This document shows, in pieces, positions 2 to 20,968 of a stretch of 27,545 bases of DNA (position 1 is its first letter; every line of letters starts with the position of its first letter). Where the stretch lies: the IMG/VR virus record IMGVR_UViG_3300045996_000667, positions 1 through 27,545 of that record, one strand, 5' to 3'. Below the pieces are notes generated by a model. It made no database searches and was not told the origin of the DNA. It saw only the letters and a program-made list of their open reading frames with translations. Made by a program: the position numbers and the translations under genes. The DNA comes from a virus. Its lineage: Duplodnaviria > Heunggongvirae > Uroviricota > Caudoviricetes.

Positions 2-196
2 AATTCGAATAGAACCTACCTCGAATGCCCATGCTGTGGGTGCGAGGGAGCTGAGTCAGACGCTGACGGCCTGTTCAACGACGGCCAGGAACTCATCTGC
101 GGATGCCCTGGCTGGGTGACAGCCGACGGAGATGGCGATGAAAGCTGGGCGTGGATCAATAACGGCGACGAGCCGTGCCAGCAATGTGAATTCTGA
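2..196 (+). CDS. 5'-truncated Cys-rich hypothetical protein
   Basis: Frame 2 is open from the window edge (..LECPCCGC..CGC..PCQQCEF). Its TGA (194-196) lies inside the TCT-GAG codons of the unit 1 motif. Confidence 0.7.
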   Translation, partial: NSNRTYLECPCCGCEGAESDADGLFNDGQELICGCPGWVTADGDGDESWAWINNGDEPCQQCEF

Positions 197-383
197 GGAG
201 TTCTTCGCAGCTCTATCTAGGCGCGCTATTCTGTGGTGTCCGACTTGTGATCAACTGACAGCAGTACGTCACATTGGTGCAGACTTAATAGACACCGACA
301 AAAACTGGCAAGTAGGGCAGTGCGAAGAATGCGGCGAGAGAGCCAGTTGGTCCGAATGGCAGTTCGAAGAATTGGCCATATGA
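186..383 (+). CDS. EFFxAL-tagged Zn-ribbon microprotein, unit 1
   Basis: GTG start; NSEEFFAAL, then CPTC..CEEC. Confidence 0.8.
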   Translation: MNSEEFFAALSRRAILWCPTCDQLTAVRHIGADLIDTDKNWQVGQCEECGERASWSEWQFEELAI

Positions 384-628
384 GCAACGACGAGTTCTGG
401 AACGAGCTTCTCGGTCTAAAAATCTTCTGTGTCGCTTGTGCTCTTAGGACAACACATTTACCAAGCCCTCTACCTACGCTGTCTCCGTATAAGGACTACA
501 ACCGCTACGACTGCTCACGCTGCAACTGTCGGTGGGTTTTAGTTAAGGGCGAAGAGGTCCTGCACCAGGAAAGTGGATGGAAACACGACCTCGACTTCGG
601 AGCAGCCTTGGAGTTGCCTCAAGAATGA
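380..628 (+). CDS. EFFxAL-tagged Zn-ribbon microprotein, unit 2
   Basis: ATGA overlap; MSNDEFWNEL, CVAC..CSRC. Confidence 0.8.
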   Translation: MSNDEFWNELLGLKIFCVACALRTTHLPSPLPTLSPYKDYNRYDCSRCNCRWVLVKGEEVLHQESGWKHDLDFGAALELPQE

Positions 629-918
629 ACTGGGACTACCACAAGCAGCGACTACTGGACGGCAAGACCACGTCATTTCGGCCTAAGGGCAACAGCATGG
701 CTCCTCGCATCCTGTCCGGCCAGCTCGTCGTCCTCGAGCCGGCGCACGAGACGTACATTGAGGTTGGAGACGTAGTCTTCTGCAAGGTCGGTGGCAACTT
801 CTATGTCCACCTTGTCAAGGCTATCCAGGATGGCAGGTTCCTCATAGCAAACAACAGAGGCCACATCAACGGCTGGACCAAGGCCGTCTATGGCAAGCTG
901 AAACTCCTGATGCCATGA
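625..918 (+). CDS. Peptidase S24/S26-like (LexA/signal peptidase fold) small protein
   Basis: GNSMAPRILSGQLVVL matches the G-x-S-M-x-P-x-I-x-x-G catalytic-Ser motif; YVHLVK is the candidate general-base region; ATGA overlaps at both ends. Confidence 0.7.
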   Translation: MNWDYHKQRLLDGKTTSFRPKGNSMAPRILSGQLVVLEPAHETYIEVGDVVFCKVGGNFYVHLVKAIQDGRFLIANNRGHINGWTKAVYGKLKLLMP

Positions 919-1319
919 AAGTGCTCTGTTGTGGTAGCAGGCACTGGGACCTTCGAACACCTGTTGAGGCGGCCCTGTCAGACCTGAAGGACTATGACGG
1001 CGGCGATGACCGTGATCTGTTCTTCAAGTCGCTGGACGTAACTCACATCGAGATAGTCCATGGCAACGCTCTCGGCGCCGATTCGCTCTGCGACTACTAC
1101 GCTCGAAAGCTAGGTTACGTTGTCCATCGACACCGTGCAGACTGGAAAAAGCACGGCAAGGCTGCCGGTCCTATCAGGAACCAGGAAATGCTTGATAAGC
1201 ATCCTGACATCTGCCTGGTGCTGGCATTCTCTTGGAATCTGTCAGAAAGCAAAGGCACGGCTGACATGGTTCGCAGGGCCACGAAGAAAGGCATCCCTGT
1301 CAAGGTTATCAGTGGCTGA
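915..1319 (+). CDS. SLOG-superfamily (DUF2493/YspA-like) protein
   Basis: VLCCGSR, IVHGNALGAD, ADWKKHGKAAGPIRNQEM, GTADMV..A.KKGIPV motifs. Confidence 0.85.
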   Translation: MKVLCCGSRHWDLRTPVEAALSDLKDYDGGDDRDLFFKSLDVTHIEIVHGNALGADSLCDYYARKLGYVVHRHRADWKKHGKAAGPIRNQEMLDKHPDICLVLAFSWNLSESKGTADMVRRATKKGIPVKVISG

Positions 1320-1524
1320 CAGCGACGAGTTCTTCTTCAGTCTAATAGATCCTGTCGTCAATGTCTCACACGTTGAAGCATACTGCCCACGCTGCAAGGC
1401 TATGGCAGATCATGACAAAAAGACCTACGGAAATCCTCTAAGGTGTGCATACCTTTGCCGCCGCTGTGGGCTTCTAGAAGACTTGCCAAACTCGAAATTC
1501 CTAACATATGGACAGTTCTACTAG
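1312..1524 (+). CDS. EFFxAL-tagged Zn-ribbon microprotein, unit 3
   Basis: GTG start; ADSDEFFFSL, CPRC..CRRC. Confidence 0.8.
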   Translation: MADSDEFFFSLIDPVVNVSHVEAYCPRCKAMADHDKKTYGNPLRCAYLCRRCGLLEDLPNSKFLTYGQFY

Positions 1525-1735
1525 TTCCGAGGAATTCTTCGGCGCATTGGCGATTAGGCTGAACGTCAGTTGCCCAAGATGTGACGATCCGCCTCTTAGT
1601 AGCACTGTCGTCGTTATCGACCGCTACAACGCGCTAGACCCAGATGGCAAGCAGGTTTACCCAAAGGTGCAGTGCGAGAAATGCCGCTTCGTAGGTGTAG
1701 TTCCAGAGTCTTGGCTGGAGGAACGGCGTGTCTGA
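1508..1735 (+). CDS. EFFxAL-tagged Zn-ribbon microprotein, unit 4
   Basis: SSEEFFGAL, CPRC..CEKC. Confidence 0.8.
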   Translation: MDSSTSSEEFFGALAIRLNVSCPRCDDPPLSSTVVVIDRYNALDPDGKQVYPKVQCEKCRFVGVVPESWLEERRV

Positions 1736-1925
1736 TAACGAGGAATTCTGGGGCGCGCTAGTTGGTATAGATCTGAACTGCTTAAAGTGCGACAGCGTCA
1801 CGAAGCACATTGAAGCAGAAAATATCCAAGACTGGCATACGTTCCGGCCATACCGTTGCACAGTGTGCAAAAAGGGTGAGCGGCTTTACCCGCTCGACCC
1901 CGAAAATCAGAAATGGTGGCGCTAG
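1728..1925 (+). CDS. EFFxAL-tagged Zn-ribbon microprotein, unit 5
   Basis: GGAGG RBS, GTG start; DNEEFWGAL, CLKC..CTVC; its stop overlaps the integrase stop (CTAG). Confidence 0.8.
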   Translation: MSDNEEFWGALVGIDLNCLKCDSVTKHIEAENIQDWHTFRPYRCTVCKKGERLYPLDPENQKWWR

Positions 1926-3037
1926 GCCATAGCCTTCTGGAACGTGTCGAGCCTCTTGGCCGCATCTTCTAGCATGGCCTGGTCGACGATCGTATAGCGC
2001 CGATAGACGTCCTCAGTCTTATGGCCAACCATCTGCATGGCCGCCTTCCTGCTCACTCCTGCCAGCTCGAGATTCCTGACAGCCGTCCTCCTGAAGTCGT
2101 GCAGGAACCTTTCAAGTCCTGCCGCCGCGCAGGCATCATTCCAAGCCTTGTAGAACGACCTGATAGGCTCGCCAGACGACCTGACGAATACGTATGGCAC
2201 CTTCTTCTTGGTCTTCTCCTCGATCTTGTCGACGTACTCGCGCTGCGCTGTCAGGACCCTGCGAAGTTCATCAGTGAACATGAACGTCCTGCCAACCTTC
2301 TTGTCCTTGCCCTGCCCGACGTACAGCAGCAACTGGCCGTTGTCGAAATCGACGTCAGACCACTTTCTGGTGAGCAATTCGGACTTGACGCGCCAACCTG
2401 TGATGTAGGCCACGTCCAGAACAGGGTGATAGCGCTTGCCGAGGTGTTTTTTGATGGCAAGAACCTCGTCCCGGCTGAAGAATCCGTGCCTGACGTTGTT
2501 TTCTGGCAGCTTGTCCATGAGCGGCACGGTCGTGATCTTGCCGGCTTTGAACGCCAGCCTCATTCCGCGCTTCAGTGCGGCGCATTCTCGGTTAATCGTG
2601 GCCGAGGCTGCCCCAGCTTCCTTCCTGGCCACCTGATAGCGCACGACAGCGGCCGTCGTTATCTGGGAGGCCCGCCAGCCGCCGAAGAACGCTGCCAGCT
2701 TGGGCATGGCGGTGTGCGTGAGTCTGTAGAGGCTCTGCCTGCGGTCCTTGAGGGTGTAGTCCTGCTTGACGAGGCTCAGGCAATCCTCGAAGGTCGTGCT
2801 GCGCTTGTCCGTGATCGGCACGCCGTCCTTGCGGGACTGATTCCGGTCGATCAGCAGCTGCATCGCCTTGCCGTAGTCGTCCGTGTCGGTCGTCTCGGTC
2901 TTGTACTCGCCGCTGACGTAGTACCCGAGGCTGTAATTGGGCGATTCTCGCATTTCGCCCGTCTTCCGGTCGCGCCATTTCGCCTTGAACACTCGTCCGA
3001 GGCCCCACGCCGACGCTTTTTTGGCTTTTCTTGGCAT
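1922..3037 (-). CDS. int: Tyrosine recombinase / phage integrase
   Basis: Catalytic set: R (TGWR..ELL), HDFRR, GHKT, YRRY; N-terminal arm-binding-like region; AGGAG RBS. Confidence 0.93.
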   Translation of the reverse strand: MPRKAKKASAWGLGRVFKAKWRDRKTGEMRESPNYSLGYYVSGEYKTETTDTDDYGKAMQLLIDRNQSRKDGVPITDKRSTTFEDCLSLVKQDYTLKDRRQSLYRLTHTAMPKLAAFFGGWRASQITTAAVVRYQVARKEAGAASATINRECAALKRGMRLAFKAGKITTVPLMDKLPENNVRHGFFSRDEVLAIKKHLGKRYHPVLDVAYITGWRVKSELLTRKWSDVDFDNGQLLLYVGQGKDKKVGRTFMFTDELRRVLTAQREYVDKIEEKTKKKVPYVFVRSSGEPIRSFYKAWNDACAAAGLERFLHDFRRTAVRNLELAGVSRKAAMQMVGHKTEDVYRRYTIVDQAMLEDAAKRLDTFQKAMA

Positions 3038-3068
3038 CCTGGCTCCTACGCGTTCGGGAATTTCACGC

Positions 3069-3272
3069 TCGCTGCGTTGCTACGCGCATTGCACGTGTTA
3101 TTTTACCCCAAAACACACACAAAATGTGTGTGTGCGCTTCGGATTCCTAGAATTTCTTTAAAGGAACACAAAACACACAAGAATTTTGTGTTGTTTACGG
3201 GATTTTGAGTCCTGTTGAGAAGTGAGAATATGCCCTAAAATCGCCAAAATCAAGCAAATTCGCTGCGTTGCT
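3069..3272. other. attP-like region
   Basis: 13-bp direct repeats TCGCTGCGTTGCT (3069-3081, 3260-3272) flank an AT-rich segment with inverted repeats (3113-3133, 3165-3192). The minus strand reads GGACTCAAAATCCC at 3199-3212, resembling a tRNA-Leu(CAA) anticodon stem-loop. Confidence 0.65.
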
Positions 3273-3346
3273 CGCTGTGTTTACCAGCTTTCGCGCTACG
3301 ATCGCCCCAGAATGCAGCGAGCAGCCGAAACAGGCCCGAACTGAGG

Positions 3347-3352
3347 TATAAT
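3347..3352 (+). promoter_or_regulatory. Putative -10 element for the tRNA
   Basis: Perfect TATAAT ending 9 nt before the tRNA 5' end; no clear -35. Confidence 0.5.
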
Positions 3353-3360
3353 TGTGCTTT

Positions 3361-3447
3361 GGCGGTGTGGCGGAACTGGCAGACGCAGGAGACTCAAAAC
3401 CTCCCGACCTCACGGTCATGTGGGTTCGATTCCCACCACCGCCACCA
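3361..3447 (+). tRNA. tRNA-Leu(CAA), class II, CCA encoded
   Basis: Acceptor GGCGGTG/CACCGCC, D arm GCG/CGC, anticodon loop CTCAAAA, variable arm GACC-TCAC-GGTC, T arm GTGGG-TTCGATT-CCCAC, then A+CCA. A-C mismatch at the loop-closing pair. Confidence 0.93.
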
Positions 3448-3468
3448 CCTAACGCGTTAGGGCAACGA

Positions 3469-3528
3469 ATGAGCAAACAACAGATACCATTGTGCAAGGG
3501 CGGCTGGCAACAGAATGGACAAGTCTGA
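3469..3528 (+). CDS. 19-aa leader/remnant ORF ending in the unit 6 motif
   Basis: MSKQQIPLCKGGWQQNGQV; TGA lies inside TCT-GAC of the next unit. Confidence 0.35.
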   Translation: MSKQQIPLCKGGWQQNGQV

Positions 3529-3751
3529 CGAGTTCTTCGGAGCGCTAGCACCTGGCACGCCGCAATACTGCCACCACTGCGAGCGCGTGACAAAGTGGCT
3601 CAGGCTGACAGCCACGGAGAGATATAATTACGGTTCGTCATACACGGCGTGGTCAAAACTCATATGCAGCGAGCACGAAACGTCGTATGGACACCACGTT
3701 TACGGCTTGCCGGACGTGATCTATGAAGTTGACATGTCTTACGGCAACTGA
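3515..3751 (+). CDS. EFFxAL-tagged Zn-ribbon microprotein, unit 6
   Basis: MDKSDEFFGAL, CHHC..CSEH. Confidence 0.8.
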   Translation: MDKSDEFFGALAPGTPQYCHHCERVTKWLRLTATERYNYGSSYTAWSKLICSEHETSYGHHVYGLPDVIYEVDMSYGN

Positions 3752-3771
3752 CACTGACACACGTAACACAC

Positions 3772-3951
3772 ATGGATAGCGTGCAAGCTGACAAGTCGGC
3801 CGAGTTCTTCGAGGCCTTGAGGGAAACCATCATCAAGCGCTGTTCGGGTTGCAAGGAACAAACAGAGCACTCCTATAGTTATGGAAAACATTACGTCTGG
3901 TACGAATGCGAACGCTGTCATGCCCTCACAACAGAACACAGACCAGGCTGA
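3772..3951 (+). CDS. EFFxAL-tagged Zn-ribbon microprotein, unit 7 (59 aa, not in ORF track)
   Basis: Hand translation: MDSVQADKSAEFFEAL..CSGC..CERC. Confidence 0.8.
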   Translation: MDSVQADKSAEFFEALRETIIKRCSGCKEQTEHSYSYGKHYVWYECERCHALTTEHRPG

Positions 3952-4129
3952 GGAGTTCTTCGCAGCGCTGGCCGAAATTGTCAGACAACATTGCCTGGAC
4001 TGCGAAGCAACGGTAGACCATTACACCTATCAGCTAGCTGACAGAACAAGGCATGTGTGCAGATTCTGCGGACTGATGGTGGAGCGATTCAAGAATGGCG
4101 ACGTCACCTTCACCAGAAACAGCGGCTGA
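3920..4129 (+). CDS. EFFxAL-tagged Zn-ribbon microprotein, unit 8
   Basis: QAEEFFAAL, CLDC..CRFC. Confidence 0.78.
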   Translation: MPSQQNTDQAEEFFAALAEIVRQHCLDCEATVDHYTYQLADRTRHVCRFCGLMVERFKNGDVTFTRNSG

Positions 4130-4331
4130 CAGGTCGGCCGAGTTCTTTCAGGCGCTGGAGCCGTTATACCGTCTCTACTGCTATTTTGGCTGCTGCATGG
4201 ACACACCTCACAGGATTACAGGCCCTTTCACCGACCCGATCTTCCACCAAGACATTGTCTATGTTGGTTGCACACTGTGCAACGGTACTGACTATTGGCC
4301 CCGCAAGACGCTTGAGCGCCATGCCATCTGA
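4095..4331 (+). CDS. EFFxAL-tagged Zn-ribbon microprotein, unit 9
   Basis: DRSAEFFQAL, CYFGC..CTLC. Confidence 0.78.
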   Translation: MATSPSPETAADRSAEFFQALEPLYRLYCYFGCCMDTPHRITGPFTDPIFHQDIVYVGCTLCNGTDYWPRKTLERHAI

Positions 4332-4518
4332 TAGGTCTGAGGAGTTCTTTCAGGCTCTTGAGTCGCGCTGGATGCTCTACTGCTTTGGGGTCTGCCGTAA
4401 ACAGCGGCAGCACGTATCTAAAGACGTGGTCCAAGGTACCCACACGATGAAATGCCTCACATGCGGCTACCTAGAAGAATGGCATGAGGATGTCCTCTGT
4501 GCAGACTACCAAATCTGA
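4321..4518 (+). CDS. EFFxAL-tagged Zn-ribbon microprotein, unit 10
   Basis: MPSDRSEEFFQAL, CFGVC..CLTC. Confidence 0.8.
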   Translation: MPSDRSEEFFQALESRWMLYCFGVCRKQRQHVSKDVVQGTHTMKCLTCGYLEEWHEDVLCADYQI

Positions 4519-4708
4519 GGAGTTCTTCCAGGCGCTGTCAAAGATGGCAACCTTGTACTGCGATGGGTGCAATTGCGCAACGGCATGGCGTTACCTCGGC
4601 CCAGAACCTGTCTACAAGCATGTAGGCTGGATAGAAGCCGAATGCACACGGTGCAACGCTGTAGCTCCTTGGCTTGACGTCACCTTTGACCGCAATGGCA
4701 TATCCTGA
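4499..4708 (+). CDS. EFFxAL-tagged Zn-ribbon microprotein, unit 11
   Basis: GTG start after GAGGA (alternative ATG at 4484 or 4490); TKSEEFFQAL, CDGC..CTRC. Confidence 0.78.
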   Translation: MQTTKSEEFFQALSKMATLYCDGCNCATAWRYLGPEPVYKHVGWIEAECTRCNAVAPWLDVTFDRNGIS

Positions 4709-4913
4709 CGACTTCTTCGAGGCGCTGAACATCCTGAACGGCCTGACAGAACGCTGTCAGGAATGCGGGCGCGCTATCAGCGAGGACGAATTCAGAGTGA
4801 ACTGGCAAAGCTGCGAGCTCTGCTTGGACGCCGCCATCGAAGAGTACTACCTAGCAGAAGCTGCCAAGGCTGAGAGGGAATATGAGCAACTCAAAGAGTT
4901 TGGGCAGATCTAA
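4695..4913 (+). CDS. EFFxAL-tagged Zn-ribbon microprotein, unit 12
   Basis: MAYPDDFFEAL, CQEC..CELC, acidic helical tail. Confidence 0.8.
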   Translation: MAYPDDFFEALNILNGLTERCQECGRAISEDEFRVNWQSCELCLDAAIEEYYLAEAAKAEREYEQLKEFGQI

Positions 4914-5109
4914 AGAGTTCTTTCAGGCGCTAAGACCGATGGCCCTGCTGTCGTCATCTTTCCACCCATGCGGAGATTCCGTATATGGGCGCTCAAAGAT
5001 GATTATCACAGACGAGAGAGACGACCGGTACACATACTGCGTTTGCCCACAGTGCGGCTACAAGGACGGATGGTACCATGACACTGTCGAGAAGAACCTG
5101 TGCCAGTAG
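4882..5109 (+). CDS. EFFxAL-tagged Zn-ribbon microprotein, unit 13
   Basis: RSKEFFQAL, HPC..CPQC. Confidence 0.75.
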   Translation: MSNSKSLGRSKEFFQALRPMALLSSSFHPCGDSVYGRSKMIITDERDDRYTYCVCPQCGYKDGWYHDTVEKNLCQ

Positions 5110-5294
5110 ACAAGGCTGAAGAGTTCTTCCAGGCGCTATCAACGTTGGCGAGACTAAACTGCCCTTACTGCGGGCCGCAACGCACCGTAGCTAAGCTGGA
5201 ACCACACGATGCAGCCACGACAGTAGGACAATGCATGTCTTGTCGAAAAACATCTATCTGGTTTAACTATTCTTGGGATCGCTTTGCCCTCTAA
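5100..5294 (+). CDS. EFFxAL-tagged Zn-ribbon microprotein, unit 14
   Basis: GTG start; DKAEEFFQAL, CPYC..CMSC. Confidence 0.8.
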   Translation: MPVDKAEEFFQALSTLARLNCPYCGPQRTVAKLEPHDAATTVGQCMSCRKTSIWFNYSWDRFAL

Positions 5295-5523
5295 AGCCGA
5301 AGAGTTCTTCCAGGCGCTGGACATGATCTGGGCCGACTGCGATCGGTGCAACCCTAAGACAAGGCGAGAAGGAAGCCACACCTGGTTGAGCGTAATAGGT
5401 TGGTACGCAAATGCGATGTGGGCTAAGACTGAGTGCCAGACATGCGGCAACATCGTATGGCACAGCGCCGGCTACATCGAAGCTCGCAAAAATGAACAAC
5501 CTCGAGGTCGGGTAAGGGCATGA
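5284..5523 (+). CDS. EFFxAL-tagged Zn-ribbon microprotein, unit 15
   Basis: TTG start; SKAEEFFQAL, CDRC..CQTC. Confidence 0.8.
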   Translation: MPSKAEEFFQALDMIWADCDRCNPKTRREGSHTWLSVIGWYANAMWAKTECQTCGNIVWHSAGYIEARKNEQPRGRVRA

Positions 5524-5654
5524 TCAATCTCCTAATATTCCTGCTCAGGTTCTACGACGTTCTACTCGTTGGACTGGCAGGCTCGTTCATTCTGGCCGTC
5601 ATCTGGTCGGCAGCCTCATGGCTGGCAGGACTGATAACTTATGTCCAAGACTGA
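5520..5654 (+). CDS. Small membrane protein (44 aa, not in ORF track)
   Basis: MINLLIFLLRFYDVLLVGLAGSFILAVIWSAASWLAGLITYVQD; ATGA overlap; stop lies inside the unit 16 motif. Confidence 0.7.
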   Translation: MINLLIFLLRFYDVLLVGLAGSFILAVIWSAASWLAGLITYVQD

Positions 5655-5880
5655 AGAGTTCTTCGAGGCGCTGTCAATGCGGTTCAGTGGTGCTCACGGC
5701 CAGTGCGCGCCAACACTAGCAGAATCTGGCGGCGTTATCTGGACTGTCGACATGGCCAGCTATCAGGCTGTCAAGCATGAATTACTTGACAACGTACTAG
5801 TCAAGTGCTCTCGCTGCAAGCGATGGTGCCGCACAACAAAATCTTACGTCGATGATAGACTCAGCACACATGCAGTCTGA
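5641..5880 (+). CDS. EFFxAL-tagged Zn-binding microprotein, unit 16
   Basis: MSKTEEFFEAL, HGQC..CSRC. Confidence 0.8.
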   Translation: MSKTEEFFEALSMRFSGAHGQCAPTLAESGGVIWTVDMASYQAVKHELLDNVLVKCSRCKRWCRTTKSYVDDRLSTHAV

Positions 5881-6157
5881 AGAGTTCTTCGCAGCCCTGA
5901 CAGGCACCATGTGCGGCATCTGTTATGCCCCGATAGTGCCTACCGAGAAGCCGTTGGGTGGCAAAGGCTACTACTTCGTATACGTCTGGGACCACGATTT
6001 CATCCCTCCGAACTGTAAGAAGGACGAGGATTCCTATTGTCAACTCCCGATGTGTCCAGGCTGCTATGGCTCGTGGGGAATGACCTCGGCAGGAAATATA
6101 AGATCTTGGGAACTGTGGGTAGTCTCAAGGAGGAAAGAACTTGGCCTCAAAGGCTGA
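5870..6157 (+). CDS. EFFxAL-tagged Zn-ribbon microprotein, unit 17
   Basis: MQSEEFFAAL, CGIC..CPGC. Confidence 0.8.
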   Translation: MQSEEFFAALTGTMCGICYAPIVPTEKPLGGKGYYFVYVWDHDFIPPNCKKDEDSYCQLPMCPGCYGSWGMTSAGNIRSWELWVVSRRKELGLKG

Positions 6158-6371
6158 AGAATTCTTCGAGGCTTTGCACACTGTGCAATCGACGTCCACT
6201 TGTCCATCCTGCAAGGCCACAGAAATGGCTAGGCCATACAGGCATATCACTGGACAATGCGCCTGGGAGTTATTCTGCCAGTGCGGCGAGAGTTTTCAGT
6301 CATCTCCTCGGGGAACATACTACAAAGACCTAAAAGCCATAGGCCACAGGCTACCAGACGATCATGACTGA
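6141..6371 (+). CDS. EFFxAL-tagged Zn-ribbon microprotein, unit 18
   Basis: AGGAGG RBS, TTG start; SKAEEFFEAL, CPSC..CQC. Confidence 0.8.
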   Translation: MASKAEEFFEALHTVQSTSTCPSCKATEMARPYRHITGQCAWELFCQCGESFQSSPRGTYYKDLKAIGHRLPDDHD

Positions 6372-6564
6372 CAAGTCTCGAGAGTTCTTCAAGGCTATCG
6401 GCGTTGTCGTGCTTGAACTGGAATGCCCATCGTGCGACTCTGAACAACTACATGACTGCGAGCCGCTTCCCGAAGGCGTCTGGGCAGTGATCTGTCAACA
6501 ATGCGGCAATGACTGGAAGAGCTACTACATAGCCCAGAAGAAGTACGATGAAGTATCGCTGTGA
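6364..6564 (+). CDS. EFFxAL-tagged Zn-ribbon microprotein, unit 19
   Basis: MTDKSREFFKAI, CPSC..CQQC. Confidence 0.8.
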   Translation: MTDKSREFFKAIGVVVLELECPSCDSEQLHDCEPLPEGVWAVICQQCGNDWKSYYIAQKKYDEVSL

Positions 6565-6706
6565 GAACGGACAGCTCGTGCCAGATCCTGACGGCGATTG
6601 GATAAGGACTGAGATTACTATCGCCACTGGCACAGCTATCAGGCCGCCAGGACTCGACGGACAGAGGATTGTCGTATGGACGCTAAAGAGTTCTGGGACT
6701 CACTGA
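6548..6706 (+). CDS. Untagged hypothetical microprotein (52 aa, not in ORF track)
   Basis: MKYRCENGQLVPDPDGDW..; fills the gap between units 19 and 20. Confidence 0.55.
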   Translation: MKYRCENGQLVPDPDGDWIRTEITIATGTAIRPPGLDGQRIVVWTLKSSGTH

Positions 6707-6903
6707 TACCGCCCACCATCGAGCTGGCGATGTGTGGATGTAGCAGTCCCAGCAAGCCTGCCGAGTGTGTGCCAGTCAGGCAAGAGATGGTATGGTTCTG
6801 GAGGGCGACGTGCAAGAGCTGCGGCTGGGAGTACGACTGCCAGCCCGGTGGCGGCTACGCACAAAGGCTGGCTAGAGATGGATACATCCTCCCTAACGAC
6901 TGA
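6676..6903 (+). CDS. EFFxAL-tagged Zn-ribbon microprotein, unit 20
   Basis: MDAKEFWDSL, CGC..CKSC. Confidence 0.75.
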   Translation: MDAKEFWDSLIPPTIELAMCGCSSPSKPAECVPVRQEMVWFWRATCKSCGWEYDCQPGGGYAQRLARDGYILPND

Positions 6904-7183
6904 AGAATTCTTCGAAGCTGTAGGTGTTGTCAGGTGCATAGCCTGCAGTCAGTTCACCAATAACGGCAAAAGCATGTGCTACGGCTGCTTTATTCCCTTT
7001 ATGCCCTACGAGCGGCTGTTAGAGCTGAAAGAGCGACGAGATGCCTCTTTCTATGCGGCCCCTGACCTCCGATACCGATACTTTCCAGTGCCGTCGACAG
7101 ACCCAACGCCGGCGCGCCCAGAAGCTGACGGACTCGAGAACGCGAGCACGGAACACCCCACCGCATCAGGCGGCCATGATTGA
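6878..7183 (+). CDS. EFFxAL-tagged Zn-ribbon microprotein, unit 21 (3' part antisense to the methyltransferase)
   Basis: LTTEEFFEAV, CIAC..CYGC; the tail is probably read-through into the inserted gene. Confidence 0.65.
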   Translation: MDTSSLTTEEFFEAVGVVRCIACSQFTNNGKSMCYGCFIPFMPYERLLELKERRDASFYAAPDLRYRYFPVPSTDPTPARPEADGLENASTEHPTASGGHD

Positions 7184-7727
7184 CAGCGTACCTAATGTTC
7201 ACCAGAGGGAAATGACGGCCCAGCAACTCTCGCAGCTGCTCGGTCCTGTAATGCCTCTTATGGTCATGGTAGGGACGTGTCAGGAAATCACCGTTTGGCG
7301 TCGTCATCAGGAACCTGCCGCCAGGCCTCAGCACGCGGGCGACATTCGCCACGAAGGCCTCGTCAGCCTCCACGTGCTCCAACACCTCCACCGCCACCAC
7401 CACGTCGAACGACCGCGCCGGCAGCCGCGTATCGGTCATGTCGTCAATGACGTAGTCGTAGACGTTCGTTCTGGAGGCGATGACCTGCCGACGAATGGCC
7501 TCCGTCGCCCCAAGGTCCAGCCGCTCCTGCAGCTCGGACTGGCGAGGAATGTCGGAGATGATCACCCGACTGCGCAGGCCGATGGTATACTGGCTGCGGC
7601 GACCGCCGACGTCCAGGATTCGCAGAGGGCCGTCTGCCTCCATCTCTCGCAGCATCCTCGAAACACGCCAGTACAGCGGGTGCTCGACAGGGCGAACCAC
7701 ACGGCGCAACGTCTCGTATCGCGTCAT
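6999..7727 (-). CDS. Class I SAM-dependent methyltransferase
   Basis: Motif I RILDVGG, FDVVVAVEVLEHV, RVLRPGGRFLMTTPNG; opposite strand and visibly more GC-rich than the array. Confidence 0.88.
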   Translation of the reverse strand: MTRYETLRRVVRPVEHPLYWRVSRMLREMEADGPLRILDVGGRRSQYTIGLRSRVIISDIPRQSELQERLDLGATEAIRRQVIASRTNVYDYVIDDMTDTRLPARSFDVVVAVEVLEHVEADEAFVANVARVLRPGGRFLMTTPNGDFLTRPYHDHKRHYRTEQLRELLGRHFPLVNIRYAVNHGRLMRWGVPCSRSRVRQLLGAPALGLSTALESIGIGGQGPHRKRHLVALSALTAARRA

Positions 7728-7784
7728 AGCTCTAGCATATGCCGATTTTGGCTACCTGACAACACTTACTAGTGTATTCCTTTC

Positions 7785-8021
7785 ATGTCAACATCTGAGG
7801 AGTTCTTTCACGCGCTCGCTCCGTCCGTTATAGGTGCGCACGACGCCTGTCAGGGCAGCTTCGAACATCGCGTGTTCTGGATTATCGACACTGTCAGCTA
7901 TCATGACGTCAGGGATGGACAAGCCATGCTGACCTGCAGCAATTGTGGCCAGCAGGTATGGGCCGCCAAGGCTTGGATCAACGATAAGCTGGACCGAACA
8001 ACGCGACATGACCAATTCTGA
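7785..8021 (+). CDS. EFFxAL-tagged Zn-binding microprotein, unit 22 (paralog of unit 16)
   Basis: MSTSEEFFHAL, GAHDAC..CSNC. Confidence 0.8.
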   Translation: MSTSEEFFHALAPSVIGAHDACQGSFEHRVFWIIDTVSYHDVRDGQAMLTCSNCGQQVWAAKAWINDKLDRTTRHDQF

Positions 8022-8211
8022 GGAGTTCTTCCAGGCCCTGACACCGACTACTATGGCTGTCTGCGATAACGACCGCTCGTGCGGCACCACCTTGCACGCC
8101 TGCACGCCACTTCCCGATTCCTTTTGGGAGGCTAGGTGCCTAAAATGCGGGGCTATGTGGGTCAGCAGCCTTGTCATTCATGAGGCGCTCCTAGAGGAGG
8201 GCAAGATTTGA
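8008..8211 (+). CDS. EFFxAL-tagged Zn-ribbon microprotein, unit 23
   Basis: MTNSEEFFQAL, CDNDRSC..CLKC. Confidence 0.8.
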   Translation: MTNSEEFFQALTPTTMAVCDNDRSCGTTLHACTPLPDSFWEARCLKCGAMWVSSLVIHEALLEEGKI

Positions 8212-8381
8212 CAAAATCTGAGGAATTCTTTCAGGCGCTCACAGGCCCGGTAGTCGAAGCATCATGCCACCACTGCCAGGTTAACAGAATGTTCGTTTGC
8301 ACACATGTTCTAGGACCGCAATGGGAAGCGACCTGCCAAGTGTGCGGTAACGTTATCGCCTTCAGTGTTACTGATGACTAA
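8208..8381 (+). CDS. EFFxAL-tagged Zn-ribbon microprotein, unit 24 (57 aa, not in ORF track)
   Basis: GAGGAGG RBS, TTG start; TKSEEFFQALTGPVV..CHHC..CQVC. Confidence 0.8.
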   Translation: MTKSEEFFQALTGPVVEASCHHCQVNRMFVCTHVLGPQWEATCQVCGNVIAFSVTDD

Positions 8382-8463
8382 ATCTGAGGAATTCTTTCAG
8401 GCGATCACAGGTCCAGTAGTCGAGGCTCACTGCACCGGCTGCCTGCCACGCAGAAGGGATTGA
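8374..8463 (+). pseudogene. Truncated unit 25 (29 aa; second CxxC lost)
   Basis: MTKSEEFFQAITGPVVEAHCTGCLPRRRD*; paralog of units 24 and 26. Confidence 0.6.
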
Positions 8464-8467
8464 GCGA

Positions 8468-8596
8468 ATGACTGAATGCGAGCCGGGATACCACGAATGG
8501 GAGTCCGGCGCCGGGTGGGGGACCATCATCGGCGTCAGTCGCTGTAAGCGTTGCGGTCGAGTGTCCCGCGCGTCTGATTTCTCCGGCGATGACTAA
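8468..8596 (+). CDS. Untagged Cys/His microprotein (42 aa)
   Basis: MTECEPGYHEW..CKRCG..; stop lies inside the unit 26 leader. Confidence 0.6.
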   Translation: MTECEPGYHEWESGAGWGTIIGVSRCKRCGRVSRASDFSGDD

Positions 8597-8789
8597 ATCT
8601 GAGGAATTCTTCCAGTCGCTAACAGGCCCAGTAGTCGTGGCGCACTGCATCGTCTGCGTCCAGATCGTCAAGTTCGTTTGCACACATGTGCAAGGCTCCA
8701 CATGGAGTGCTACCTGCCAGGACTGCGGCAACGTTTGGGAAAGCTTCTTCACAATCGAGCGTAAATTGATAAAGTCAGGTCAGATTTGA
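8589..8789 (+). CDS. EFFxAL-tagged Zn-ribbon microprotein, unit 26
   Basis: MTKSEEFFQSLTGPVV..CIVC..CQDC. Confidence 0.8.
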   Translation: MTKSEEFFQSLTGPVVVAHCIVCVQIVKFVCTHVQGSTWSATCQDCGNVWESFFTIERKLIKSGQI

Positions 8790-9120
8790 CCACTTTGTCA
8801 AGCACTTTTTGCCCGACCAGTTCGCAACTTGCCAGTTGGCCAGCCCCATACTCCACTTCGCACCCCAAAATCAACATAAAAATGGCCATTTTAGCCATTT
8901 CACCCCGATTTTTCCCATATTTCAAGCCTCTCGTAACATTCCCATATAATTTTACAGGTCGATCGCACTAGGGAAACCGCCTGCCCTTACCCGGCCTCGA
9001 GGTCGATGGCTGCCGTCGGGCTCCCTTACTATTTCGCCGGCTACTTACCTTTGTATAGTTACTCACAGCTGGTGAGTGCCAGGCCTTTTGGTTAGTGCGG
9101 ACTAGCATAGGCTGATAGTG

Positions 9121-20596: not shown

Positions 20597-20968
20597 ATGG
20601 CTGACAAACTGTTCATACCGACCATCGGCACGCAACTTGTGCTCGCAGAGCCGTGGACCTTCAAGGTCTACAGCGAATATCGGAACGCCGACATCCTGTC
20701 AATGGTCAACCATGTCCAGCAACGCTACGGCGTTCACCACGTTAACAACCTGACACTGCCTGTCGGAACTGTTCTGACGGTCGACCGCATCTACATCAAG
20801 AAAGGCATGCCCGACTTCGATAGCATCACGTTCAGGGCCAGCGACTACGCCACTAACAGCGTTGACGAATTCTTCGCAGCGCTGGCAGACTTCAAGATCA
20901 AGAAGTCTATCAGGTTCTGGGTGAAGCTGGCAGACGCCAACACCATCGTCTACAAATCACAGGAGTAA
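20597..20968 (+). CDS. Phage hypothetical protein with internal DEFFAAL motif
   Basis: LFIPTIG..W.F..Y.E.RN..RFWVKL.D.N; motif at 20864-20884. Confidence 0.75.
   Translation: MADKLFIPTIGTQLVLAEPWTFKVYSEYRNADILSMVNHVQQRYGVHHVNNLTLPVGTVLTVDRIYIKKGMPDFDSITFRASDYATNSVDEFFAALADFKIKKSIRFWVKLADANTIVYKSQE

Follow-up and report, generated by a model that had tools for sequence, protein, structure and literature searches.

The IMG/VR virus record IMGVR_UViG_3300045996_000667 is 125,713 bp long and comes from a soil phage of the class Caudoviricetes; its first 27.5 kb (27,545 nt) make up the stretch of DNA analyzed here, referred to as the window. Between positions 186 and 8789 it carries an array of 26 small plus-strand genes of 59–101 aa each, numbered as units 1 to 26. 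In every unit, a leader of 3–10 residues is followed by a short N-terminal tag (consensus x-[S/A/T]-[E/D]-E-F-[F/W]-x-A-L) and then by a CxxC...CxxC zinc ribbon. The tag and the four cysteines are the only conserved columns in an alignment of 25 units, and pairwise identity is 20–38%. These proteins matched no Pfam or PHROG family. The AlphaFold model of unit 1 (pLDDT 88) places the tag in an N-terminal helix, accompanied by a beta-ribbon, and a Foldseek comparison of this model with the PDB gave nothing at E ≤ 0.001. The run of units is broken up by an integrase gene, a tRNA-Leu gene, two unrelated genes (577/625–918 and 915–1319) and a methyltransferase gene, and about 11 further tagged genes are dispersed over the rest of the genome.

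Overlaps between consecutive tagged genes

The original prediction, made from the letters and their open reading frames (ORFs), was that 20 of the 24 overlapping junctions share one frame offset, the DNA of the downstream tag supplying the upstream stop codon. All junctions were re-derived by finding, for each tag, the first stop in both shifted frames and measuring the ORF that ends there, and the count was confirmed exactly. At 20 of 24 junctions (units 1, 3, 4, 5, 6, 8–13, 15–19, 21, 23, 25 and 26) the upstream stop has its first base at position 3 of a codon in the downstream frame. These overlaps are all of 3n+2 length and span 8–35 nt (8, 11, 14, 17, 20, 26, 32 or 35 nt), those of units 1, 8, 11, 13 and 17 being minimum values, since their start codons are ambiguous. 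The stop is spelled by NNT-GAN, NCT-AAA or ACT-AGT codon pairs, and in 11 units it falls exactly on the step between tag positions -1 and 0 (Ser/Ala/Thr/Pro to Glu/Asp/Lys), where the first acidic codon lies at 195, 3527, 3950, 4517, 4707, 4912, 5653, 5879, 6156, 6902 or 8020. This figure and the maximal overlap of 35 nt, both part of the prediction, hold on re-derivation. The upstream genes owe their stop and their last 2–10 codons to the leader or tag of the next gene, so the claim that a module receives its stop from the following unit also stands.

The other four overlaps are found at units 2 (ATGA), 14 (G-TAG-AC), 20 and 24 (TTGA), and units 7 and 22 are not overlapped by an upstream gene. 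An in-frame start (ATG, GTG or TTG) is present 3–10 codons ahead of the tag in every unit. Of 19 direct modules, 15 have a tag-to-tag length of 1 mod 3 (P = 0.01 against 0.5), and the reading frame thus rotates by +1 from each unit to the next. Coordinates are collected in Table 1.

Three ORFs without a tag had been listed as ending in the next tag in the same manner. Their endings hold, but two of them are doubtful as genes. The 19-codon ORF behind the tRNA gene is without support as a gene and is probably none, its 'stop' being merely the TCT-GAC of the tag that follows. The ORF at 8468–8596 is probably the 3' half of a frameshifted unit 25 and no independent gene: the tag and first CxxC of this unit lie in one frame (8374–8463) and the second CxxC in the next, and the family profile matches with its positions 1–27 in frame 0 (8374–8460, E = 4e-11) and with its positions 41–54 (W...CxxCG) in the next frame (E = 0.003 in a search of eight sequences). 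The tag-to-tag length at this unit is 215, or 2 mod 3, as expected from a one-base insertion. The third, a hydrophobic ORF of 44 aa at 5520–5654, gave no match to the family profile.

A 15-bp palindrome, TTGCACA[G/C]TGTGCAA, occurs within units 5, 9 and 18 (1851–1870, 4268–4287 and 6173–6188), and its copies in units 5 and 9 are the coding sequence of the second CxxC (C-T-V/L-C). Unit 21 ends in a long low-complexity tail, putatively translated, that overlaps the 3' end of the methyltransferase gene convergently by 185 nt (6999–7183).

Table 1. Units of the array, their junctions with the gene ahead, and other features. Positions are those of the window, except where the record is named; a hyphen separates codons of the downstream frame.
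Feature	Position	Strand	Junction or remark
Array of 26 small tagged genes	186..8789	+	tag and CxxC...CxxC
Untagged upstream gene, 5' end cut by window	2..196	+	stop TGA 194-196 = TCT-GAG, unit 1 tag
Unit 1, GTG start at 186	186..383	+	head variant only
Polymorphic cassette, units 1 and 2 here	190..624	+	single 250-nt unit in tail copy and X1/X2 contigs
Unit 2	380..628	+	ATGA overlap with unit 1 (3n+1); about 70% identical to unit 2' of other strain
Unrelated gene, PHROG match 'GTP-binding domain'	915..1319	+	stop TGA 1317-1319 = GCT-GAC, unit 3 leader
Unit 3	1312..1524	+	overlap 8 nt
Unit 4	1508..1735	+	stop ahead TAG 1522-1524 = ACT-AGT; overlap 17 nt
Unit 5	1728..1925	+	stop ahead TGA 1733-1735 = TCT-GAT; overlap 8 nt
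Tyrosine integrase, splits array	1922..3037	-
tRNA-Leu(CAA)	3361..3447	+	probable attP region
19-codon ORF after tRNA	3469..3528	+	closed by TCT-GAC of unit 6 tag; probably no gene
Unit 6	3515..3751	+
Unit 7	3772..3951	+	no overlap with unit 6; tag variant S-A-E-F-F as TCG GCC
Unit 8	3920..4129	+	stop ahead 3949-3951 GCT-GAG, exact; overlap 32 nt
Unit 9	4095..4331	+	stop ahead 4127-4129 GCT-GAC; overlap 35 nt
Unit 10	4321..4518	+	stop ahead 4329-4331 TCT-GAT; overlap 11 nt
Unit 11	4499 (or 4484)..4708	+	stop ahead 4516-4518 TCT-GAG, exact
Unit 12	4695..4913	+	stop ahead 4706-4708 CCT-GAC, exact
Unit 13	4900 (or 4882)..5109	+	stop ahead 4911-4913 TCT-AAA, exact
Unit 14	5100..5294	+	stop ahead TAG 5107-5109, other register
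Unit 15	5284..5523	+	stop ahead 5292-5294 TCT-AAA
Untagged 44-aa hydrophobic ORF	5520..5654	+	ATGA overlap with unit 15; ends on ACT-GAA, unit 16 tag
Unit 16	5641..5880	+	stop ahead 5652-5654 ACT-GAA, exact
Unit 17	5870..6157	+	stop ahead 5878-5880, exact
Unit 18	6141..6371	+	stop ahead 6155-6157, exact
Unit 19	6364..6564	+	stop ahead 6369-6371 ACT-GAC
Untagged 52-aa ORF	6548..6706	+	overlaps unit 19 by 17 nt
Unit 20	6676..6903	+	stop ahead TGA 6704-6706 = CTG-ATA, tag Leu step; 3n+1, overlap 31 nt
Unit 21	6878..7183	+	stop ahead 6901-6903 ACT-GAA, exact; overlap 26 nt
Methyltransferase gene, in array region	6999..7727	-
Unit 22	7785..8021	+
Unit 23	8008..8211	+	stop ahead 8019-8021 TCT-GAG, exact
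Unit 24	8208..8381	+	stop ahead 8209-8211 in TTGA, 3n+1
Unit 25, frameshifted	8374..8596	+	stop ahead 8379-8381, from leader ATG ACT AAA
Unit 26	8589..8789	+	leader ATG ACT AAA gives TAA 8594-8596
200-aa unrelated gene	record 33968-34570		ends on CTA-G, 19 nt into tag of following scattered gene
186-aa unrelated gene	record 45667-46227		ends on GTA-GAG (TAG) in tag of following scattered gene
465-aa unrelated gene	record 122737-124134		ends exactly on TCT-GAC of tag of following scattered gene

Codon choice and register at the junctions

Codon choice at the tag step was compared with that in the confident genes of the same genome. Where position -1 is serine, the codon is TCT in 12 of 16 cases (75%, against 15% genome-wide; P = 1e-7), and codons ending in T occupy this position in 19 of 24 units (P = 4e-8). 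The adjacent synonymous sites (GAG/GAA and TTC/TTT) match genome usage, so shared ancestry fails to account for the wobble T. In a shuffle null, the downstream proteins and the upstream register were kept fixed while codons were redrawn from genome usage (5000 draws). The stop was observed at or before the tag step in all 19 of 19 junctions, against a null mean of 7.5 and a maximum of 16, and the summed overlap was 287 nt, against 1284 ± 257 nt (means of about 15 and 68 nt). Codon usage alone thus does not yield this placement of stops, a shuffled-codon null being one of the tests that the original prediction had named as able to refute it, and the stop pattern is real and selected, not chance. 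A working stop inside another gene must bias the synonymous codons there, so most of this signal is ordinary purifying selection on stops.

Stops are also somewhat enriched in the frames that are not in use. The unused 3n+2 frame meets a stop in 6 of 7 units (null 3.4, P = 0.04) and the unused 3n+1 frame in 13 of 22 (null 10.2, P = 0.09), an excess that amounts to a weak trend and is no proof of a frame-independent terminator; with enrichment as weak as this, a role of the tag as 'universal punctuation' is unsupported. Two other codon preferences were seen within the tag. Its alanine is encoded by GCG in 13 of 22 units (23% genome-wide, P = 3e-4) and its leucine by CTA in 7 of 23 (12% genome-wide, P = 0.015); CTA-G, CTA-A and CTG-A at this leucine create stops in the 3n+1 frame at +19. 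A hairpin formed by the GARGAR/TTCTTY palindrome was considered as the selected feature and rejected: the D-E and F-W variants break the palindrome, and synonymous sites vary freely.

For the rest of the genome, junctions were called with a crude gene caller, which gave 65 overlapping same-strand junctions, 43 of them of 1 or 4 nt and 20 of the 3n+2 class. The ratio of 3n+2 to other overlaps is 20:4 in the array and 20:45 elsewhere (Fisher P = 1e-5), in agreement with the expectation that the array differs from a genome in which 1- and 4-nt overlaps dominate. Among overlaps longer than 4 nt, 3n+2 exceeds the other class by 20 to 2 in the rest of the genome, and what is unusual in the array is that its junctions are almost all long, where 1 or 4 nt would be the norm. 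Being overlapped by the upstream neighbour is a general trait of tagged genes (about 86%, against about 36% of same-strand junctions genome-wide). For example, three unrelated genes preceding scattered tagged genes end within the tag (last rows of Table 1), while other unrelated genes upstream of tagged genes end at -7 or -8. Family-to-family junctions are 3n+2 or 3n+1 in a ratio of 16:4, and those of unrelated genes running into tagged ones in a ratio of 5:6 (Fisher P = 0.11), which suggests that the bias is a feature of the array, inherited from a founder, and not of the tag.

Cassette boundaries and strain variation

The first 1567 bases of the record recur at its end (124334–125713) with an overall identity of 89–98%, and the head and tail copies are mosaic, with segments of 98–100%, about 70% and 89% identity. 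Contigs from soil metagenomes show them to be two co-occurring strain variants of one genome, so the true genome is about 124.3 kb and circular or circularly permuted, and the record runs on past its own starting point into a second strain. Four soil metagenomes (runs X1–X4, from four studies) hold the region; they were searched as assembled contigs, from which rare variants are dropped. Contigs of 12–13 kb from runs X1 and X2 carry the tail form, in which 187–623 is replaced by 250 letters. The flanks of this polymorphic cassette are 98–100% identical between the strains, unit 2 and its counterpart unit 2' share only about 70%, and unit 1 is missing from the tail variant. One breakpoint, 189/190, is 6 nt ahead of the tag, and the other, ATG 625, opens an untagged gene that matches repressor families (phrog_4, CI-like); the junction into that gene is ATGA in the head strain and TAATG in the tail strain.

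At the other side of the cassette, the same upstream gene ends in ...QQCEF within the unit 1 tag of the head strain and in ...GECQTNSGTNS in the tail strain, where its stop lies on CTA-AGT, 22 nt into the unit 2' tag and in the other register. Strains exchange cassettes, and the gene upstream takes its new stop from the one that comes next. The proposal that the arrangement survives module exchange is borne out to this extent, but the breakpoints lie outside the tag. At 184–189 an ATG and a GTG start overlap in the sequence ATGTGA. Read from the ATG, the head strain has ATG-TGA (methionine, then stop), so unit 1 must start at the GTG, and the tail strain has C in place of T (ATGCGA), by which the ATG frame is opened and serves unit 2' as its start. 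The tail strain's leader is not pieced together from those of units 1 and 2.

Units 24, 25 and 26 form a young subfamily with 86–90% identity over about 70 nt. The shared block starts at the start codons (8208, 8374 and 8589) with nothing in common upstream, and the leader ATG ACT AAA gives ends of the type ..DD to two unrelated upstream ORFs. All three homology boundaries that can be resolved, from one polymorphism and this one subfamily, are therefore at start codons, 6–12 nt before the tag, one of them at an untagged gene. Boundaries in this position mean that a start codon belongs to the cassette that it opens and is not donated by the one before. The view of the module as running from motif to motif and donating the following start is contradicted by these blocks (8208/8374/8589 and 189/190), and recombination between motifs is unsupported, with one boundary at the untagged ATG 625 and no tag-to-tag joint or deletion seen in the assembled contigs of the four metagenomes. 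The region 3370–8981 is present as a single contig without differences in X1 and in X2, and as identical pieces in X3 and X4, where uncovered parts of the array are no evidence of absence. One apparent joint in X2 (3972 to 5874) was rejected: its loose ends match the flanks of tags at 20864 and 33470 of the same genome, its side is 24 nt with the letters between 'not known', and it was read as a cross-match of paralogous tags in one long contig rather than a deletion.

A different kind of change is seen in unit 3 (1345–1375), where the tail copy, X1, X2 and X4 have one base inserted behind 1348 (+1) and one deleted at 1371 (-1). About 8 residues that lie after the tag and ahead of the first CxxC are recoded by the pair (IDPVVNVSH versus IESIGGCQI), and such a compensated double frameshift is a source of protein variation. 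In all four metagenomes the phage contigs end at about 3399, within the tRNA-Leu gene, and contigs of other organisms pile up there. A break at this tRNA gene, beside the integrase gene, fits an attP core and a temperate lifestyle aimed at the host tRNA-Leu gene.

No related phage genome with the array was found in IMG/VR, using the integrase, the DNA pattern of the tag, a Ku-like protein and two foreign homologues as queries, nor was a related array found among GenBank phages (DNA and protein) or in an index of 5.8 billion proteins. HMMER retrieved five foreign homologues with 35–41% identity, all on soil contigs of 567–1814 bp. The C-termini of two of them (...NGQV and ...DDHRI) correspond to out-of-frame leaders of the form ATG-GAC-AAG-TCT-GA and ATG-AC...TCT-GA, a back-translation only and not evidence. 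A scan of metagenomes for the tag pattern gave single chance matches, and none among the matches listed encodes a tagged zinc ribbon.

Origin of the junctions and known systems

We lean, with modest confidence, towards an explanation in which the array consists of founder-derived cassettes running from start codon to start codon, where each next cassette supplies a stop that is kept by purifying selection and coupled translation is likely. The array would then be a gapless, co-directional series of amplified cassettes, each comprising a start codon, a leader of 3–10 codons, the EEFFxAL tag and the zinc ribbon. Each gene would read 8–35 nt into the next cassette in the 3n+2 register and halt at the first stop there, nearly always a TGA made by the wobble T before an acidic residue and the GA that follows, or else the NCT-AAA or ACT-AGT of a leader. 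The uniform register most likely goes back to a founder cassette with a length of 1 mod 3, which would have multiplied by tandem duplication or unequal exchange, later indels coming in multiples of three. Purifying selection on a working stop, and against long overlaps, would hold the wobble T in place, the loss of which would make the upstream protein about 15–25 residues longer, across the neighbour's tag. Whole cassettes would be swapped between strains, with start codons as their boundaries.

A search of the array for promoter and terminator signals gave none above shuffled controls, and this, together with the absence of gaps, makes a polycistronic message plausible. With termination within 35 nt of the next start, translation may well be coupled along such a message, by termination-reinitiation or by unmasking of the start; judged from gene layout, coupling appears likely. 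The stops lie 5–32 nt downstream of the next starts, farther than the -4/-1 optimum for reinitiation, and phage fr, as cited in PMC10666635, offers a precedent in which the start used for reinitiation precedes the stop by up to 34 nt. Several points weigh against the explanation. In reporters of E. coli and Haloferax, an untranslated spacer of 14–38 nt after a premature stop led to a steep drop in reinitiation, and those reporters did not include overlaps with the stop downstream of the start (PMC10666635). Shine-Dalgarno energies average -3.8 in the array, -4.2 in other genes and -3.1 at random sites, the array not being significantly different from either, so that a dependence on coupling cannot be argued from weak ribosome-binding sites. 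The units are so divergent (20–38% identity) that the history of amplification cannot be reconstructed, the contrast in register on which the founder rests (16:4 versus 5:6) is non-significant, and the stops in unused frames (6/7 and 13/22) are enriched in a way that simple upkeep of working stops does not predict.

Of the alternatives, the one most to be reckoned with, although we think it unlikely, is that the junctions are a neutral by-product: packed genes lost their stops and read on to the next one, GAN after a T-ending codon makes a stop probable, and there is no selected role. This is the standard origin of long overlaps (PMC3887535, PMC10666635), and it is in keeping with the 20 to 2 excess of 3n+2 among overlaps of more than 4 nt elsewhere in the genome, with the unrelated upstream genes that end in tags in either register (5:6), and with a Shine-Dalgarno analysis that shows nothing special. 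However, genome codon usage predicts a stop by the tag step at about 40% of junctions and overlaps of about 68 nt, and the observed 19 of 19 and 15 nt imply that at least selection against long overlaps acts on the wobble T; nor does neutrality sit well with the roughly 86% of tagged genes that are overlapped upstream, against 36% genome-wide. It is doubtful that the tag DNA serves instead as a crossover site for homologous recombination, by which motif-to-motif modules are added, deleted and reordered with coupling kept. The tag is the only DNA repeated array-wide (26 nt at 69–88% identity, with exact patches of up to about 20 nt), phage recombination can use patches of less than 50 bp, and mini-circles are documented for promoter-early stem-loop (PeSL) cassettes (PMC2839356). 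The one whole-cassette polymorphism between co-occurring strains, the weak excess of stops in unused frames and the first 70 nt of unit 25, which resemble a conversion tract from units 24 and 26, agree with such a role. Yet the three resolvable boundaries are at start codons, 6–12 nt upstream of the tag and in one case at an untagged gene, the tail variant's leader is no chimera of those of units 1 and 2, and the metagenome contigs, 100% identical over the covered parts of 3370–8981, contain no tag-to-tag joint. Moreover, the conversion tract in unit 25 yielded a broken gene, and synonymous variation in the tag is as under selection at the level of the peptide, not of the DNA.

Less probable again is a reading in which the leader and tag codons (NCT-GAR, ACT-AAA, and CTA-G or CTG-A at the leucine) are selected to terminate any entering frame, giving portable 'plug-in' cassettes that would be translated in a coupled manner behind any gene. 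We give very little credence to a polyprotein made by programmed frameshifting at each junction, or to the small ORFs and their junctions being artefacts of ORF calling. The frame does rotate by a constant +1 from unit to unit, but each unit has its own in-frame ATG, GTG or TTG 3–10 codons before the tag, a codon such as ATC before the stop has no way to re-pair in the downstream frame, and no slippery heptamer is present, and +1 frameshifting at the stop was rejected; the family is moreover confirmed by its profile matches to foreign homologues and by its confidently predicted fold.

With founder-derived cassettes as the preferred explanation, the array indicates that a phage can amplify a microprotein family to about 37 copies without intergenic DNA. 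The codons that open one copy also close the neighbouring gene, stop included, and the synonymous sites of the tag are bound to this second function. If coupling is true, all paralogues would be made from one message in fixed proportion, which bears on the function of the family. If the tag were a frame-independent terminator or a crossover site, it would represent a new way to build portable gene cassettes, for which the present evidence falls short; the portable-cassette reading, if true, would provide a coding-sequence counterpart of PeSL or integron cassettes, as illustrated by the junctions of the 465-, 200- and 186-aa genes.

PeSL cassettes are known from the modular shuffling of T4-like phages (Arbiol et al. 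2010, PMC2839356; Comeau et al. 2014, PMC4122927). As in the array, short conserved sequences flank small accessory genes in a hyperplastic region and a cassette brings its own expression signals, and the indels and mini-circles predicted for PeSLs match the recombination model first put forward for the array, under which the tags would be a coding-sequence analogue of PeSLs. PeSLs, however, lie between genes, measure about 100 bp and contain a promoter and a terminator, and crossovers have been mapped inside them, whereas the array has no intergenic DNA, a coding motif of 12–23 nt and mapped boundaries outside that motif; neither promoter or terminator matches above shuffled controls nor local inverted repeats flanking the units were found in it. 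As regards integron cassette arrays, no attC-like inverted repeats were found in the array, where the coding tag is the only recurrent repeat, and its integrase differs in lying beside tRNA-Leu where contigs break, as at an attP (no profile specific for integron integrases was run). In the internal proteins of T-even phages, small and otherwise hypervariable, the N-terminus is a conserved capsid-targeting sequence (Repoila et al. 1994, as cited in PMC3012670 and PMC2839356). In that system the sequence steers packaging into the prohead and is cut off by the prohead protease. They resemble the array family in having a short conserved N-terminal peptide on diverse small phage proteins that are clustered in plastic loci. 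No sequence relation between the two was found, and the genes for the internal proteins, unlike those of the array, are separated by promoter-like elements and do not overlap.

As an example of overlaps that extend well past a start codon, 34 nt are shared by the coat and lysis genes of RNA phage fr, and reinitiation is described by a scanning model (Adhin and van Duin 1990, as cited in PMC10666635). Termination tens of nucleotides downstream of the next start, with reinitiation at the start nearest the stop, is common to that model and to the scheme proposed here, but fr has a single gene pair in an RNA phage, with coupling shown experimentally, whereas the array is serial and its coupling would follow from gene layout. 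The closest match is with 'long phase 1' overlaps, i.e. same-strand overlaps of 3n+2 length (8, 11, 14 ... nt; Fonseca et al. 2013, PMC3887535; see also Huber et al. 2023, PMC10666635). Most long overlaps on one strand fall into this class, and their proposed origin is a 3' extension of the gene up to the in-frame stop that comes next (PMC3887535, PMC10666635). The array shares with them the upstream stop at position 3 of a downstream codon and the minimum overlap of 8 nt, and the same rule is seen in the rest of this genome. It differs in that 20 of 26 consecutive junctions of one paralogous array are of this type, instead of the usual 1- or 4-nt overlaps, in that 11 of its stops fall on the same residue step of a conserved peptide motif, and in a frequency and placement that depart from the neutral expectation of codon usage. 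The junction type therefore belongs to a known class of overlaps and is no new recombination device; what is new is a serial array of about 20 such junctions in which the codons of a conserved peptide tag also spell the stop of the neighbouring gene.

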